A DNA stretch of 23,561 nucleotides. Source: a virus. Taxonomy: Duplodnaviria; Heunggongvirae; Uroviricota; Caudoviricetes. This document shows positions 1 to 4,877 of the stretch, one piece after another. Positions within the stretch are counted from its first letter, which is position 1. Every line of letters begins with the position of its first letter. Below the pieces are notes generated by a model. That model did not search any database. It saw only the letters and a program-made list of their open reading frames with translations, and was not told the DNA's origin. The stretch covers positions 1-23,561 of the IMG/VR virus record IMGVR_UViG_3300046779_000230; one strand, given 5' to 3'. Both the position numbers and the translations under genes were made by a program.

Positions 1-779
1 TACATTCTATCAGCAATCTGACTAGGCATGTTACGTTTTCTATTAGTTTGACCCATGTGCCATTTGCTATTGAGTTCAATGAACGCTTGAAACTCTGGTA
101 AGGTTTCAACCTTTAATGGATAATTATCTAGTATTTTCTCCATACAGTCAACTTGATCTGGTGTTAGACTGTCTCTCCAGTTCATTGTAAACTGCTCTTT
201 AGATAGCGTTTGAACTTTACCAAAAAGTTGATCACCAAGATACCCAGAAACAATGATACCAGAAGAAAACTCTGGATTATTCATAGGTGTGCTTAGACTA
301 TAACGAATACCACGACCTTTGATAAACTTGTCGAATACAGATCCAGACTCTATGATAGAGTAGTAATTGCAAGCCACCAAGATTTGTTTTGGGTCTGCGT
401 ATTGCATCAGAGAAAATAGTGCAGTTGTGCTATCAAGACCACCAGACCATGAAACAACAATCTGTTCGCCGTTGGCACGTTCAACTAGATCCTTGGCTGT
501 TTCTAAACAAATTTGTTTAAATGACTTGTTGAATGTAGGTTCAACTTTTGGTAGTGGTGTTACTCCACTAACTTTTAGATAATGTGGTATTGTTCCTGTA
601 CGGTCTACAAACAAACTCATATTACCAGCTGTGATTAGATTGTCCTTGGCGTTATAACGCTCAAGTTCTAATTTTTGGTACAGTGGATAAAGTTCGTCAA
701 ATCGTTCAGTTTTAAACTTGTCCATCTTTGGACTGTTAATAACTTCAGGTAGACGATGAATCAATAAATTAAGTATCAT
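1..779 (-). CDS. Asparagine-synthetase C-terminal-like / N-type ATP pyrophosphatase (PP-loop) protein, partial (runs off left edge)
   Basis: Not in ORF track; hand-translated from ATG at 779 (ATGA overlap with the upstream stop): MILNLLIHRLPEVINSPK...IVVSWSGGLDSTTALFSL...IIVSGYLGDQLFG...NMPSQIADRM, open to position 1 (259 codons). SGGLDS PP-loop and an SGxxGDQLFG motif resembling AsnB SGEGADELFG. Confidence 0.75.
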   Translation of the reverse strand, partial: MILNLLIHRLPEVINSPKMDKFKTERFDELYPLYQKLELERYNAKDNLITAGNMSLFVDRTGTIPHYLKVSGVTPLPKVEPTFNKSFKQICLETAKDLVERANGEQIVVSWSGGLDSTTALFSLMQYADPKQILVACNYYSIIESGSVFDKFIKGRGIRYSLSTPMNNPEFSSGIIVSGYLGDQLFGKVQTLSKEQFTMNWRDSLTPDQVDCMEKILDNYPLKVETLPEFQAFIELNSKWHMGQTNRKRNMPSQIADRM

Positions 780-1087
780 ATGCTTAAGAAACTATTAACA
801 ATAAGCGCATCTGGTAAAACCAATTGCCATGTATCACCTACTTGTCGAACAACTTGAATTTTGTTTTTCCAAATATAGTCAATGTTATTCCTAACAATAC
901 GTTTTTGTTCTGGTGTACCAATTATTGTAAACTCAGGCAAGACTATCTGATATTCTTCTGTGTGTTTGACGAATTCTAAATCATTAGAAGAATCGTACCA
1001 GAAAAAACTTTGTACTGTTCTATATTCATCAAATACGGGATAGAATGGGATATTCCAAACCCAACATTGTATTGTAGGAACTATCAT
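776..1087 (-). CDS. Hypothetical protein (103 aa)
   Basis: Start moved to MIVPTIQC at 1087, which gives an ATGA overlap with the upstream stop; its own stop overlaps the next ATG. Confidence 0.65.
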   Translation of the reverse strand: MIVPTIQCWVWNIPFYPVFDEYRTVQSFFWYDSSNDLEFVKHTEEYQIVLPEFTIIGTPEQKRIVRNNIDYIWKNKIQVVRQVGDTWQLVLPDALIVNSFLSI

Positions 1088-1434
1088 AGTAAGTGTTGAG
1101 CTAAAACCATGCAAGAGATCCAAGCCCAGATAACATTAAATCCAACTAAGGTTGGTAGCAGTTTCTTGTTACTTGCCCAGATAAGAGTTAGAGATGTAGC
1201 TAGAGTAAAGAAGTATAACCACCAAATTTGAATACCAAAGATAAGACCAGGAATTATAATCACAGCCTTTGCCGCCCAGCTGGCAAACTCAACCACGTTA
1301 TAATTAGTCCAGTACTCACGAGTAAACCACATGGCGAAACAATCACGGATTTTACCCCAGTTAGAGTGAGTGAATACTATGGAGCAAAGAACAACCCACA
1401 CTGAGGTTGCTGCTACAATTTGATCTAATGTCAT
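1084..1434 (-). CDS. Small integral membrane protein (3-4 TM)
   Basis: 116 aa with several hydrophobic, Trp-rich stretches; ATGA-coupled on both sides. Confidence 0.75.
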   Translation of the reverse strand: MTLDQIVAATSVWVVLCSIVFTHSNWGKIRDCFAMWFTREYWTNYNVVEFASWAAKAVIIIPGLIFGIQIWWLYFFTLATSLTLIWASNKKLLPTLVGFNVIWAWISCMVLAQHLL

Positions 1435-2306
1435 TTAGAAGCCTCAATTTTATCGCGATATTTTTCTTGTAAACGTCTAACGGTACCAATGGACTTTGTG
1501 TAGAATTGTTCTGGTGTAACAGCAGGAGTTTTCATACCAGAAACTTTAAAGATTTCATCGGCTCCAACCTTGGCTTGTGCATCATTAAGAATGATACTAA
1601 TTGCTTTACGACGAGTCTCATCCATAGACTTTGGAGCAACTGTGATGTTGAACACGTAAGGTGCATCAATACCAATTTCTTTTAACGTCTTGACATTTGG
1701 CGCAGTGGGAATACGTGTTGGACAAGAAGCAGCGAATGCTTGTAAGTTAGGATTCTTGGTCTTCATGGATTCATATGCTTCATGACGATCGATAACCATA
1801 AAAATACCATTGTTACCTGCCATATTCACCAGCGCATCATTGTTTGATTTAAATACAATGTACTTAACATCAAACTTGTACTTTTCTCCAAGAGCAAGAG
1901 CAGTCAAGTGTGCAGCGTTACCGAATCCAACACCACCAACGGTCAACTCTTTGTTGACATTGATTGGTCCATTAGTGATAACAGTCCAGCAAGCGTCGCC
2001 AAGAGCATGAACAGGAACATAATCTGACTCTTTGACCTTACCAGCAGCCACATTCTCTACGAATGCTGGAGCAATGATACCAAGACTGTTGGAATCCATA
2101 GACTTGAGAGCAATGATTTGATTGCCTCCAGGCTTGAACTCCAAAACAAAATTATAGATGTTTTGACTACGGTTTGCTGTCTCTATAATCTTGTACATTG
2201 CTGGTGTACCAGAATGTGTTGGGCTATATGGTGAGTAAATTTTAATAGTTTCTGTTGCATGGGCTGTACCAAAAGCAAACAGTAAAGCAATCAAGTAATT
2301 CTTCAA
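1431..2306 (-). CDS. tctC: Tripartite tricarboxylate transporter substrate-binding protein (Bug/TctC family), divergent
   Basis: Signal peptide (AHA-TE); IKIYSPYSP..., FKPGGNQ, GGVGFGNAAHL, YIVFKSNNDAL and LQAFAASCPTRIPTAPNVKTLKEIG align by eye with Bug/TctC blocks (VPFxxGG, NKPGAGG, GxGSxxHL, HVPYKG, LRALAVTxxxRxPxLPDVPTxxExG). Confidence 0.8.
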   Translation of the reverse strand: MKNYLIALLFAFGTAHATETIKIYSPYSPTHSGTPAMYKIIETANRSQNIYNFVLEFKPGGNQIIALKSMDSNSLGIIAPAFVENVAAGKVKESDYVPVHALGDACWTVITNGPINVNKELTVGGVGFGNAAHLTALALGEKYKFDVKYIVFKSNNDALVNMAGNNGIFMVIDRHEAYESMKTKNPNLQAFAASCPTRIPTAPNVKTLKEIGIDAPYVFNITVAPKSMDETRRKAISIILNDAQAKVGADEIFKVSGMKTPAVTPEQFYTKSIGTVRRLQEKYRDKIEASK

Positions 2307-2731
2307 ACTTTCTCCGTTTCAATATTACATTTAGATAAAAAATCTAACCCATCATCATTACGATATGAGTTACGGTAGTAGACATGCTTGATGCCAGCAC
2401 CGTATATTAATTTAGCGCACTCAACGCATGGGGCATGAGTGATAAAAATAGTAGAGCCAGCACCAGACTCAGATGATTTAGCCAACTTAGAAATAGCGTT
2501 GGCTTCTGCGTGGATCACTTCTGGTTTAGTTTTAAGAATAGGTTCTTCAGCGATTCGGTGAACAAGTTCTTCACAGTTGTTGTCCCAACCAGCAGGTGTG
2601 CCATTATAACCAATTGATGTGATGCGTTCGTCTTTGACGACAACAGCACCAACTTGTAATCGCTTTGCAGAACTCAACTGAGCGAATCGTTCAGCCGTGT
2701 CCATGAATGCGTTAATCCACTTTTGTTTCAT
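2303..2731 (-). CDS. cd: dCMP deaminase
   Basis: HAEANAI and PCVECAKLI Zn-deaminase motifs; VGAVVVKDERITSIGYNGTPAG N-terminal block. Confidence 0.95.
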   Translation of the reverse strand: MKQKWINAFMDTAERFAQLSSAKRLQVGAVVVKDERITSIGYNGTPAGWDNNCEELVHRIAEEPILKTKPEVIHAEANAISKLAKSSESGAGSTIFITHAPCVECAKLIYGAGIKHVYYRNSYRNDDGLDFLSKCNIETEKV

Positions 2732-3510
2732 TTCTTACCAAACCCAAAAGGACATTTTGATTCTTTACGATCCATTTCATTAGACTTTTCTAAATCTTTA
2801 TAATAAGAGCCTAATCTATTAAATGAAGTTTGGTGGTAATCATTAGGAATAGCATCCAGCTTTACCCATTCATCAATACAAACTAAATGATTTTTAATCA
2901 CTACTTCTGCATCAGAAACAGGCACAACATGTACCATTGGTGTTCCAGCATGGATGGTAAAATCTTCGGCTTTCTTATTGATAAACATATTAATGTTTGT
3001 GGTTGATTGCGTATCAAACCACAAAACACCTGGATTTATAATAAAATTATTTGCGTGTTCTTGATGATTCCAAGAAGCAGCATTCCAAGTAAACTTGGCG
3101 CCAGTAGTTTCTTTAAATCTCCAAGGAGATACTAACTTCACGTGCATATGATCTCGATAGAGACCTTCATACTGTTCAATGGGATGAGATTCAAAGAAAT
3201 AATGTCTAGACATGACACCAAGAGCAGATTGTCCAGCAGCTGCTGTCTTTGGATTAGCAATAAAGTCAGCCCACATTGGAATGATGAACCCAACTTTATA
3301 CAACTCTGTTAATCCATTACAGATCTTTAGTGTAGAAATCTTTTGTTTGACATTACCATTTTGAGTTTTAACTTCTATGTATGTTGGCAGCGCCTTGATC
3401 TGTTCTGGAAAATATGTAATAGCCTTTCTAATCTTATACAGATTATACACAGACTCCATGGCAGTAAAGCAGTCTACTACAATTTTCTTTTTCTTAAAGA
3501 AGAATAACAT
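2728..3510 (-). CDS. Hypothetical protein, possibly dUTPase-like beta fold (DUF6065-like)
   Basis: Blocks KICNGLTELYKVGFIIPMW, KLVSPW, PGVLWFD and FTIHAGTPMVHVVP recall a common environmental T4-like family; C-terminal KCPF. Confidence 0.45.
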   Translation of the reverse strand: MLFFFKKKKIVVDCFTAMESVYNLYKIRKAITYFPEQIKALPTYIEVKTQNGNVKQKISTLKICNGLTELYKVGFIIPMWADFIANPKTAAAGQSALGVMSRHYFFESHPIEQYEGLYRDHMHVKLVSPWRFKETTGAKFTWNAASWNHQEHANNFIINPGVLWFDTQSTTNINMFINKKAEDFTIHAGTPMVHVVPVSDAEVVIKNHLVCIDEWVKLDAIPNDYHQTSFNRLGSYYKDLEKSNEMDRKESKCPFGFGKK

Positions 3511-3513
3511 TTA

Positions 3514-4200
3514 TTAGTCCATAAATTTCTTAAACAAGGCGATAACATCTCCAATAGAATCACAGTAGATGGCGATCTTTTGTACCTTGCCATCAGAGTG
3601 AGTGTCTTCATATCCATTCTCACTTAACCAAACCTTCAACTTTGTTTTCATATCAGAAAGATCAGAACCTTCTGGGATATTAAACTCGAAAGTCACCTTA
3701 ATTTGGTCGTCGGATGGAGTCCACCACCACATCATGTACATTTTATTTCTGGCGTTGCTTAGAAAGAATGCAGTAGATGCGTTTAGTTTTACTTCGCGCA
3801 GACAGTTACGGAAAATATCGTAATTTGCGATATACCAGTCTGGCATTGACTCGAACATGTCGTGCTGTTCGGATTGATACTTACCAAAGATTGAGGACAA
3901 AGACGTCATAGTAAAACACTCCTTATAGTGACCAGACACAGAGTTTTTATCTGGAGTTTCAGTTGCAATTAAAAAAGATTCTAGACAAAACGATGGTCCA
4001 TCTTTCTTGTCTTCAAATTTCTCTAAATTTCTAGCCACGATGTAGCAGTCATACGGATTGAAACCTTTTTCAACTACGTGACACCAACATCTATCACCAT
4101 TGCCTTTACCAACATAAAGGATTTCATTAGTCTCAGAGTCAACATATTTGTATACATACTGACCAAGACTATTAAAGAATTCTATAGAAGGTTTTTTCAT
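3514..4200 (-). CDS. GIY-YIG (LEM-3-like) nuclease domain protein with unknown C-terminal domain
   Basis: YVYKYVDSETNEILYVGKGNGDRCWCH and LESFLI match the LEM-3-type GIY-YIG pattern; start placed at MKKPS (4200), at the predicted +1 of the promoter. Confidence 0.7.
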   Translation of the reverse strand: MKKPSIEFFNSLGQYVYKYVDSETNEILYVGKGNGDRCWCHVVEKGFNPYDCYIVARNLEKFEDKKDGPSFCLESFLIATETPDKNSVSGHYKECFTMTSLSSIFGKYQSEQHDMFESMPDWYIANYDIFRNCLREVKLNASTAFFLSNARNKMYMMWWWTPSDDQIKVTFEFNIPEGSDLSDMKTKLKVWLSENGYEDTHSDGKVQKIAIYCDSIGDVIALFKKFMD

Positions 4201-4206
4201 ACTATA

Positions 4207-4235
4207 ATTATACATCATATATTGATAAAAGTCAA
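4207..4235 (-). promoter_or_regulatory. Sigma70-type early promoter, leaderless transcript
   Basis: TTGACT (4235-4230), 17 nt, TATAAT (4212-4207), 6 nt, then ATG at 4200. Confidence 0.85.
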
Positions 4236-4447
4236 TACATTATTTTAGCCAGAATGTCTCTGGCTTCGGGCATCCCATTTTTCTCCATATGATCGTCAAA
4301 CAACTCGTCTTTAGCTTGTTGAATCATGACTAACACTCTCATCGCATCTTGTTGTGTCATGGCATTCAACATCATGGCAAACTCGTCGTGCTCTAAACCC
4401 AACAAGAAAAGTAAAAAGTCTCTGTCTTCATCCTCAAGATGTTGCAC
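4232..4447 (-). CDS. Hypothetical protein (71 aa, GTG start)
   Basis: The track ORF's 5' part overlaps the upstream gene; GTG CAA CAT at 4447 after an A/G-rich stretch is the more plausible start. Confidence 0.6.
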   Translation of the reverse strand: MQHLEDEDRDFLLFLLGLEHDEFAMMLNAMTQQDAMRVLVMIQQAKDELFDDHMEKNGMPEARDILAKIMY

Positions 4448-4877
4448 TTTCTTTTTCTTTCTTAGGTAAAGCAGGAATAAAGCCACAAGATTCTACTAGC
4501 TTTCTAGTAATCTTGGGATACTTTTTATGTAGTGTTTGATCTTTAACAGCAATCAACACTTCAGCTTCACTTGGGTGTACACCCTCTAACAAAGAAATAA
4601 ACAACGACTCACGTTTGACTGCATGTAAGTCTGCTCTGGTAAACACATACAAACGACGCATCTCGCCGTACAAATTACTTGGCGTCATACCAAGTGGTTC
4701 AGCAGCAGGTTTGAATGGTGGCTCGCCTTCTGGCAAGATCCACTTTTTAGCAGGATCAAAAGCATTCTCAAACAAGACCTTGAGTGTGTTACTATACACT
4801 TGGTCTTTTGCATATTGTTCCAGCTTTTTGGGATCATCATTGATGTCCTCTAACAACTGGGTGATATATTTTCTCAT
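4434..4877 (-). CDS. Conserved T4-like hypothetical protein (DUF6433-like)
   Basis: LPEGEPPFKP and RESLFISLLEGVHPSEAEVLIAVKD motifs recalled from the ORF that follows rnh in cyanophage-type genomes. Confidence 0.6.
   Translation of the reverse strand: MRKYITQLLEDINDDPKKLEQYAKDQVYSNTLKVLFENAFDPAKKWILPEGEPPFKPAAEPLGMTPSNLYGEMRRLYVFTRADLHAVKRESLFISLLEGVHPSEAEVLIAVKDQTLHKKYPKITRKLVESCGFIPALPKKEKESATS

Follow-up and report, generated by a model that had tools for sequence, protein, structure and literature searches.

A tightly packed gene block at the end of a T4-like phage contig

The stretch of DNA described here (IMG/VR record IMGVR_UViG_3300046779_000230, positions 1 to 23,561; hereafter the window) makes up the initial 23.5 kb of a viral contig that is 126 kb long, with an estimated completeness of 79%. 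Judged by its markers (RNase H, primase, ribonucleotide reductase, thymidylate synthase and a 2-oxoglutarate- and Fe(II)-dependent (2OG-Fe(II)) oxygenase), the source phage is an uncultured T4-like myovirus. Positions 1-4235 hold a promoter-like site and seven minus-strand open reading frames (ORFs), all of which are present in the ORF list with its translations: a GIY-YIG nuclease-like gene, the dUTPase-fold gene p260, a dCMP deaminase gene, the TctC-family solute-binding protein gene TctC-1, the membrane protein gene TM116, orf103, and a gene for a PP-loop synthetase resembling asparagine synthetase B (AsnB) (Table 1). The initial annotation of this DNA had treated the seven as a single operon serving one pathway. 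We find that orf103 and the PP-loop gene form the conserved heart of a variable island, and that their products would constitute an undescribed, apparently phage-only, two-protein ATP-using ligase. The window begins at contig base 1, and the truncation of the PP-loop gene is therefore a matter of assembly and not of biology.

Table 1. Features of the seven-gene block, in window coordinates
Feature	Position	Strand	Remarks
AsnB-like stand-alone PP-loop synthetase	3..779	-	first 259 of ~339 residues; contig end cuts gene
orf103, small partner and predicted subunit of PP-loop enzyme	776..1087	-	adjoins PP-loop gene in 18/21 lineages
TM116, small integral membrane protein, 116 aa	1084..1434	-	3-4 hydrophobic segments (hydropathy profile)
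TctC-1, TctC/Bug-family solute-binding protein (PF03401)	1431..2306	-	Pfam TctC 2.7e-7, residues 118-230
dCMP deaminase, 142 aa	2303..2731	-	Pfam dCMP_cyt_deam_1 (PF00383) 4e-22; phrog_174 6e-53
p260, dUTPase/dCTP-deaminase-like fold (phrog_7084, DUF6065-like)	2731..3510	-	phrog_7084 at 2.9e-20
Free-standing GIY-YIG homing-endonuclease-like gene	3517..4218	-	234 aa from ATG 4218
Sigma-70-like promoter site TTGACT-17-TATAAT	4207..4235	-	11/12 positions match; ancestral to p260, not to GIY gene

The PP-loop synthetase

The full-length PP-loop protein, 339 aa, was taken from a 98% identical copy in the related viral locus L040 (L040:8001-9017; loci retrieved for comparison carry the prefix L). 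Its SGGxDS motif is intact: WSGG(L/I)DST is invariant in 33 aligned family members, and the window copy reads WSGGLDST. A Pfam search at E <= 0.01 returned no family, Asn_synthase (PF00733) included, and a profile of the family matched PDB sequences over the ~30-residue PP-loop stretch only. QueC-like, PAPS reductase and PRK08576 assignments from NCBIfam and PHROGs were rejected, as those matches span the motif alone. An AlphaFold2 (AF2) model, with a mean predicted local distance difference test (pLDDT) score of 92, drew weak, low-TM matches from the PDB with Foldseek, LarE first, whereas the exhaustive VIA structural search ranked the AsnB class at the top, with TsnB9 (Z 13.3), beta-lactam synthetase (13.2), human ASNS (12.5), CarA (11.8) and AsnB (10.5). 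These alignments span 188-239 residues, starting at about residue 143 of the matched chains. In AFDB, clusters named "asparagine synthetase domain" match the model with TM 0.67-0.74 at 20-23% identity. The best structural matches are thus AsnB-family synthetase domains, in agreement with the AsnB-like assignment made at the outset.

Every relative of the PP-loop protein found by sequence search is a metagenomic hypothetical protein, and no match was obtained when both PP-loop paralogues of the source genome were searched as proteins against GenBank phages. The family is large, with at least 226 clusters at 50% identity (E <= 1e-10) on at least 477 viral contigs, often in two or more copies per genome. 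The sole cellular look-alikes are the AFDB fold matches, and the family is apparently essentially phage-only.

Like the synthetase domains of AsnB, beta-lactam synthetase, carbapenam synthetase and TsnB9, the PP-loop protein has the SGGxDS motif and the fold, and it would be expected to adenylate a carboxylate, which a nitrogen nucleophile then attacks. Unlike the class-II amidotransferases, it is only 339 aa long, has no Asn_synthase match and lacks the N-terminal nucleophile (Ntn, Cys1) glutaminase domain; it also needs, or at least travels with, a ~100-aa partner of no known family.

orf103 is the most frequent neighbour and a predicted subunit

We retrieved loci carrying the TctC gene (38) and loci carrying the PP-loop gene (6 at first, then 80), mapped the window genes onto all of them, and surveyed the neighbours of 94 PP-loop genes, which fall into 21 lineages at a threshold of 60% identity. 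By far the most frequent neighbour is orf103 (18 lineages), followed by radical SAM genes (12), DUF2061 (8), and genes for the binding proteins DctP and TctC (5 each). Genes for a di-iron protein, an amidotransferase and the dCMP deaminase occur in 2 lineages each, and p260 and TM116 in 1 each. Even PP-loop homologues of 28-35% identity in other T4-like phages, which have no TctC gene nearby, each adjoin an orf103 homologue.

Conservation of orf103 spans its full length, as in a folded subunit and unlike a precursor of a ribosomally synthesized and post-translationally modified peptide (RiPP). When a complex of orf103 with the PP-loop protein was predicted, the median score was 0.63, compared with 0.01 for the best of three controls; a score of this size was reached by 58 of 80 solved complexes and by 2 of 110 mismatched pairs. 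Three runs, with alignments for both partners, agreed on at least 85% of contacts, and the pLDDT of the partner was at least 80. The predicted interface contains invariant residues of both proteins (PP-loop 139-155 and 304-321; orf103 S34, P52 and W88). This modelling supports, but does not prove, binding of orf103 to the PP-loop protein. To our knowledge no similar complex has been described. A search for fusions of orf103 to the longer members of the PP-loop family (a Rosetta-stone test) found none, and the N-terminal extensions of those members hold no Pfam domain. Comparison of orf103 with the Atlas gave no usable match. In two loci from other T4-like phages (L048 5610-9138 and L120 4412-7936) a single orf103 homologue precedes three PP-loop paralogues in tandem, which are 53-76% identical to one another.

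The source genome encodes a second set at 81679-84042 of the contig (L128), also on the minus strand, within a tail/baseplate module. It consists of a radical SAM gene, an orf103 homologue (100 aa), a DctP-like protein without a signal peptide (315 aa) and a second PP-loop protein (345 aa).

TctC-1 and TM116 form a swappable insert

That the TctC gene encodes a secreted binding protein, as originally annotated, was upheld by a Pfam match that exceeds the gathering score (30.8 bits, cut-off 27) together with an N-terminal leader, secretion itself being predicted. Read by eye, the N-terminus (MKNYLIALLFAFGTAHA/TE) is a Sec-type signal peptide ending in AHA, and a similar Sec leader is present on all TctC paralogues. 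Homologues were found at 38 viral loci. A protein search of 50,697 GenBank phages gave no match, and 185,579 species genomes gave a single one. TctC-1 therefore appears to belong to a divergent, nearly virus-only subfamily. The single species-genome match lies on a 148-kb contig of a Haliscomenobacter metagenome-assembled genome (L130), in a radical-SAM array as in L017 and L035; no further gene in common with the source phage was found on that contig, which may be either cellular or a binned phage.

The subfamily occurs in about 25 viral contexts, beside TctB/TctA, DctP, arrays of radical-SAM/SPASM genes or an AMP-binding enzyme. In L022-L025, L027 and L033, homologues 54-58% identical to TctC-1 adjoin full-length TctB and TctA genes, and some viral contigs thus encode a whole tripartite tricarboxylate transporter (TTT). 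In L017, L035-L037 and L130, homologues lie within arrays of radical-SAM/SPASM genes, four to six paralogues in number; L036 and L037 have an AMP-binding enzyme in addition. TctC-1 resembles the Bug/TctC proteins of tripartite tricarboxylate transporters in its Pfam match, its Sec signal and the presence of TctB/TctA beside some of its viral homologues. It differs in belonging to a nearly virus-only subfamily, in lacking a TctA/TctB permease, none being found in the window or in the island of the source genome, and in copy number, an island having as many as three TctC paralogues, of which two are paired with di-iron proteins.

TM116 had no match in Pfam, PHROG or NCBIfam and matched viral hypothetical clusters only in the Atlas. 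A relationship to TctB or to DUF2061 was ruled out by hhalign (probability <1%). TM116 is present in 6 of 23 close loci, and DUF2061 in 16. Comparison of these loci indicates that TctC-1 and TM116 are a swappable insert, in place of which most close relatives carry a DUF2061 membrane protein. In another group of loci (L004, L005, L010, L013-L016 and L031) the dCMP deaminase and TctC genes are followed by a 2OG-Fe(II) oxygenase, NifU and one or two IscA genes, an alternative cargo that would give that island an iron/Fe-S theme.

The island beyond the contig end

L040 and other relatives continue past the PP-loop gene with one or two TctC/di-iron gene pairs, a class-I glutamine amidotransferase and a tRNA array (25 genes, L040 12106-16742). 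The island is therefore situated between the dCMP deaminase gene and the tRNA cluster. The downstream TctC paralogue of L040 is a far stronger Pfam match than TctC-1 (TctC E 1.8e-25, 90.4 bits) and is likewise predicted to be secreted. The ferritin-like di-iron protein, predicted to be cytoplasmic, has an invariant E, ExxH, E, ExxH pattern. Its sequence returned nothing informative from the PDB, where no solved AurF or CmlI chain was matched. It has 35 metagenomic homologues, a few of them named "rubrerythrin". Three of seven members match the AurF model below threshold (best E 0.0065), and four of seven match DUF455, on which a literature search was uninformative. In the amidotransferase, which matches Pfam Peptidase_C26 and GATase, the Cys-His-Glu triad is intact; among solved structures the protein is closest to subunit A of archaeal GMP synthase, a stand-alone protein the natural partner of which is a PP-loop subunit.

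The same parts recur in another arrangement. In L122 and L099, whose PP-loop protein is only ~33% identical, the order is di-iron, di-iron, orf103, PP-loop, amidotransferase and TctC, and this reordering in a distant lineage is the best evidence that the parts belong together functionally. A 16.9-kb viral contig (L039) carries three PP-loop paralogues, two TctC and two leaderless DctP genes and DUF2061, in addition to ORFs that are Rieske-like and His-box desaturase-like by motifs read by eye only.

The seven-gene block is a mosaic

Locus comparison indicates that the 4.2-kb block is a mosaic of four units within a long co-directional gene array: the GIY gene; p260 with the dCMP deaminase; TctC-1 with TM116; and orf103 with the PP-loop gene. 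These four evolve separately, which speaks against the proposal that the seven genes are one functional unit. When gene neighbourhoods were compared across T4-like phages, five of the seven genes scattered independently, largely the outcome that the initial annotation had named as refuting it. Neither the link of the pyrimidine enzymes to the ligase nor that of TctC-1 and the membrane protein was supported by this comparison: p260 and the dCMP deaminase are near the ligase in few lineages, and TctC-1 and TM116 are mostly replaced, the TctC subfamily often occurring without the ligase. What did recur is an undescribed phage module pairing carboxylate-binding proteins with an AsnB-like ligase family, much as had been suggested.

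L040, a phage of 94-96% nucleotide identity, aligns with the window up to base 4204, promoter included. Window positions 4203-3528 (676 nt) are missing from L040, which has 5 nt instead, with flanks 96-97% identical by blastn. L040 realigns for 65 nt around the p260 start, diverges through the body of p260 and realigns again from window position 2765 to the contig end. These breakpoints show that the GIY gene was cleanly inserted behind an ancestral promoter and ahead of the ribosome site of p260, and that the p260 allele next to it was swapped. None of the 20+ related loci in one round of the locus mapping carries the GIY gene. Its homologues (38-68% identity) are sporadic; most occupy the same hot spot after the RNase H/g147 genes and some lie elsewhere, usually without p260. 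That it forms a functional unit with the other six, as first annotated, is not supported, the gene being absent from a near-identical phage and present at other sites in other phages.

The N-terminal motif of the GIY protein, YVYKYV...ILYVGKGNGDR, aligns to a solved GIY-YIG domain protein (E 0.006), and phrog_5356 matches the same 37 residues; Pfam, its GIY-YIG model included, gave no match. The start codon is more likely ATG 4200, within the inserted segment (3517-4200, 228 aa). The -10 hexamer ends at 4207, the first ATG of the inserted segment is at 4200, and the longer ORF from 4218 starts within the promoter spacer; given the closeness of ATG 4200 to the end of the -10 hexamer, the GIY mRNA may be leaderless or nearly so. 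In its putative N-terminal GIY-YIG motif, its intergenic position just behind a promoter, its presence or absence between near-identical phages, its diverged neighbour gene and its sporadic distribution, the gene is similar to the free-standing Seg-type GIY-YIG homing endonucleases of T4. In contrast to these, the protein has no Pfam GIY-YIG match, the C-terminal two-thirds contain no recognised DNA-binding domain, and cleavage and homing are predicted. From its sequence and distribution, therefore, the gene behaves as a free-standing homing endonuclease, of predicted activity, outside any shared pathway.

The p260 allele of the window is 44% identical in amino acid sequence to that of L040, with flanks 94-99% identical. 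The divergent stretch (window 2766-3462; L040 5294-6011) lies directly beside the GIY insertion and suggests that alleles were swapped or co-converted in connection with homing. The initial guess of a dUTPase-like fold for p260 holds at the level of the fold. Pfam gave no match, and Atlas comparison pointed to DUF6065; an AF2 model (pLDDT 85) searched with Foldseek against the PDB returned a top 50 composed entirely of trimeric dUTPases or dCTP deaminase at a probability of ~1.0, a weak but uniform signal (E 1.6e-3 to 1.2e-2, TM by target 0.44-0.74). The C-terminal tail KCPFGFGK is invariant, and within it CPFGFG resembles dUTPase motif V; the other four motifs could not be picked out. The dCMP deaminase is unambiguous from its sequence, at 78.5 bits against a cut-off of 25 and with the zinc motifs HAE and PCxxC in the translation. 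The two are nucleotide metabolism genes, p260 putatively so, and p260 adjoins the island in its own clade only.

Junctions and promoter

The tight packing that had suggested a single operon is largely as described. The TAA-TAA-ATG joint between the GIY gene and p260 is real (TAATAAATG), and of five ATGA overlaps claimed, those at 2728, 1431, 1084 and 776 are present, but the one at 2303 is TTGA; the start codon of TctC-1 is TTG, eight bases behind a GGAG. According to crude ORF calls, 142 of 158 ORFs genome-wide are on the minus strand, about half of the same-strand junctions overlap, and 4-nt overlaps account for ~11% of junctions. Five in a row are unusual for this genome, and the tight packing of the block is therefore real.

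The claim of one promoter for seven packed genes fared less well. The predicted site is the single best sigma-70-like site in the window, but upstream of it the gene array continues with neither a gap nor a terminator. The -35 hexamer contains the stop codon of the preceding gene (4232-4486), so that the block is not set apart, and a scan of the window found no terminator-like site between the block and the upstream genes; transcripts may therefore read through from upstream. The number of sigma-70-like sites in the window is at chance level (18 found and 18.5 expected). The promoter site lies in a stretch 96% common to L040, in which p260 follows it immediately. Another sigma-70-like site (TTGACT-17-GATAAT, 123-151, minus strand, 10/12 positions) is located within the PP-loop gene and directed at the genes missing downstream. 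The window contains no copy of the T4-type late promoter motif TATAAATA, and a nucleotide search of positions 1-4300 against GenBank phages gave no match. The packing is real, but a single operon under a single promoter is more than a promoter-like site and packing can establish.

A proposed split amidotransferase

We propose, with a probability only slightly above even (about 0.55), that the island encodes a split amidotransferase, whose substrate, a small carboxylic acid caught by the binding proteins, would be adenylated and then amidated. In the host periplasm the secreted TctC proteins would capture one or more carboxylic acids, which a TTT permease would import. orf103 and the PP-loop protein would form a heteromeric AsnB-type synthetase that adenylates a carboxylate, and ammonia from the separate amidotransferase would turn the acyl-adenylate into an amide, as in the archaeal two-subunit GMP synthetase. 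The di-iron proteins may oxidise or tailor the substrate or the product.

The carboxylate is the common denominator of these parts. The binding proteins encoded next to PP-loop genes come from two families, TctC and DctP, that are unrelated but both bind carboxylates, and the TctC-1 homologues in L036 and L037 adjoin an unrelated carboxylate-adenylating enzyme of the AMP-binding type. The PP-loop enzyme, like the AMP-binding one, would activate carboxylates.

The archaeal two-subunit GMP synthetase (GuaAA and GuaAB) is the nearest parallel for the division of labour, having, like the island, a stand-alone class-I amidotransferase and a stand-alone PP-loop enzyme; the PP-loop domains of GMP synthases match the PP-loop model with Z 10.8-11.0. 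The parallel has limits. The PP-loop protein is closer to the AsnB class, and xanthosine monophosphate (XMP) cannot be assumed as its substrate; the PP-loop and amidotransferase genes of the island are parted by TctC/di-iron pairs; and most members of the PP-loop family have no amidotransferase nearby.

Several points weigh against the split amidotransferase. Only 2 of 21 lineages have the amidotransferase and the di-iron protein with the PP-loop gene, and most family members must therefore work without them. TctC is exported and the ligase is cytoplasmic, so that a link between them needs a permease, and none is visibly encoded by the phage. Many contexts of TctC-1 have no PP-loop gene within 8 kb. 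The most common context of the family is a tail-module cassette of radical-SAM, orf103, leaderless DctP and PP-loop genes, which may point to a protein substrate. The survey covered the 80 loci most similar to the query, out of at least 477, and is not an unbiased sample; co-inheritance inside the close clade is vertical and not independent. The downstream half of the island is missing from the window and was reconstructed from relatives. Finally, activity, ligand, product and benefit to the phage are proposals for every part.

Alternative explanations

The tail-module context is the starting point for a different explanation, in which the PP-loop/orf103 enzyme modifies a protein (of the virion, of a fibre, or the binding proteins themselves) and the partners with a binding-protein fold serve as specificity or chaperone subunits. 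Cassettes of this kind lie in tail-fibre/baseplate modules in L081, in L045 and at 81.7-85 kb of the source genome, and their DctP-like protein, having no signal peptide, cannot act as a periplasmic receptor. AsnB homologues moreover include peptide-modifying enzymes such as the lasso cyclases. The island of the window, however, contains neither a radical SAM nor a fibre gene, and its TctC paralogues all carry Sec signal peptides. A dedicated glutaminase and di-iron oxygenases would suit small-molecule chemistry better than protein modification, and orf103, with invariant residues at its predicted interface, resembles a folded subunit and not a substrate. We consider protein modification unlikely. 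We also doubt, to a similar degree, that the binding proteins and the ligase are functionally unlinked, the region from the dCMP deaminase to the tRNA genes being a hypervariable dumping ground in which TctC by itself raises the uptake of an organic acid or metal-citrate by the host and the PP-loop pair serves some other purpose. Relatives do hold differing cargo at this site (2OG oxygenase, NifU and IscA, or DUF2061), most of the ~25 contexts of TctC-1 have no PP-loop gene, and overlapping junctions are common across the source genome. Against this stand the adjacency of PP-loop genes to two unrelated carboxylate-binding families, the recurrence of di-iron, amidotransferase and TctC genes with the PP-loop gene in another order in the ~33% identical lineage (L099, L122), and L039, which joins three PP-loop paralogues to two TctC and two DctP genes.

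A more specific chemistry is suggested by hydroxylamine-transfer systems, namely TsnB6/7/9 of trichostatin/benzohydroxamate biosynthesis and DnfA/B/C of the Alcaligenes Dnf system (PMC13418202, PMC11160463). The island might be a split phage version of such a system that yields a hydroxamic acid during infection: the di-iron protein would N-hydroxylate the amide of glutamine, the class-I amidotransferase would release hydroxylamine, and orf103/PP-loop would couple it to a carboxylic acid delivered by TctC, the product being a metal chelator or an inhibitor of metalloenzymes. This possibility arises because TsnB9 is the top structural match, the AurF model is matched weakly and the amidotransferase is DnfC-like; an AsnB-like ligase, a ferritin-like di-iron protein and a type-1 glutamine amidotransferase are features that the island has in common with these systems. 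Unlike them, the island ligase lacks the glutaminase domain used by TsnB9, the match of its di-iron protein to the AurF model is weak, and no homologue of the reductase or accessory subunit was found in the island. We rate hydroxamate formation as quite improbable. Least credible, and in our judgement very improbable indeed, is the pathway initially proposed, in which all seven genes ligate an imported acid or amino acid to a nucleotide, DNA or a RiPP. The tight packing behind one strong promoter-like site and the pyrimidine enzymes next door had recommended it. The GIY gene is a mobile insertion, however, and p260 and the dCMP deaminase are near the ligase in just 1-2 of the 21 lineages. Nothing links the module to DNA bases, as base hypermodification would demand, and the island holds no DNA-binding, glycosylase, kinase or transferase part typical of that process. 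A RiPP-like product is likewise disfavoured by orf103, which is conserved from end to end and predicted to dock as a subunit.

Implications

Phage genes for binding proteins have a precedent in the auxiliary gene PstS of cyanophages, and the logic of adding a high-affinity receptor to a permease of the host is the same. A literature search on TctC with phage and asparagine synthetase found no paper on the pairing in the collection covered. Taken from sequence comparison, the finding is the apparent joining of an AsnB-type adenylating amidotransferase to phage-borne solute-binding auxiliary genes. New here are the putative orf103 subunit, the di-iron and amidotransferase complement, the analogy with split amidotransferases and the placing of the nuclease and pyrimidine genes outside the module. 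For annotation the lesson is that an ATGA-coupled string of genes in a T4-like phage may be a mosaic whose units are mobile or unrelated to one another, and that packing alone does not make a pathway.

Hundreds of uncultured T4-like phages carry the pair, in many cases next to acid-binding proteins, and it represents a large enzyme family without a Pfam model or a cultured representative. If imported organic acids are trapped as amides, abundant aquatic T4-like phages would have a novel form of auxiliary metabolism, and amide trapping, if true, would also explain the presence of TctC- and DctP-type receptors in phages.

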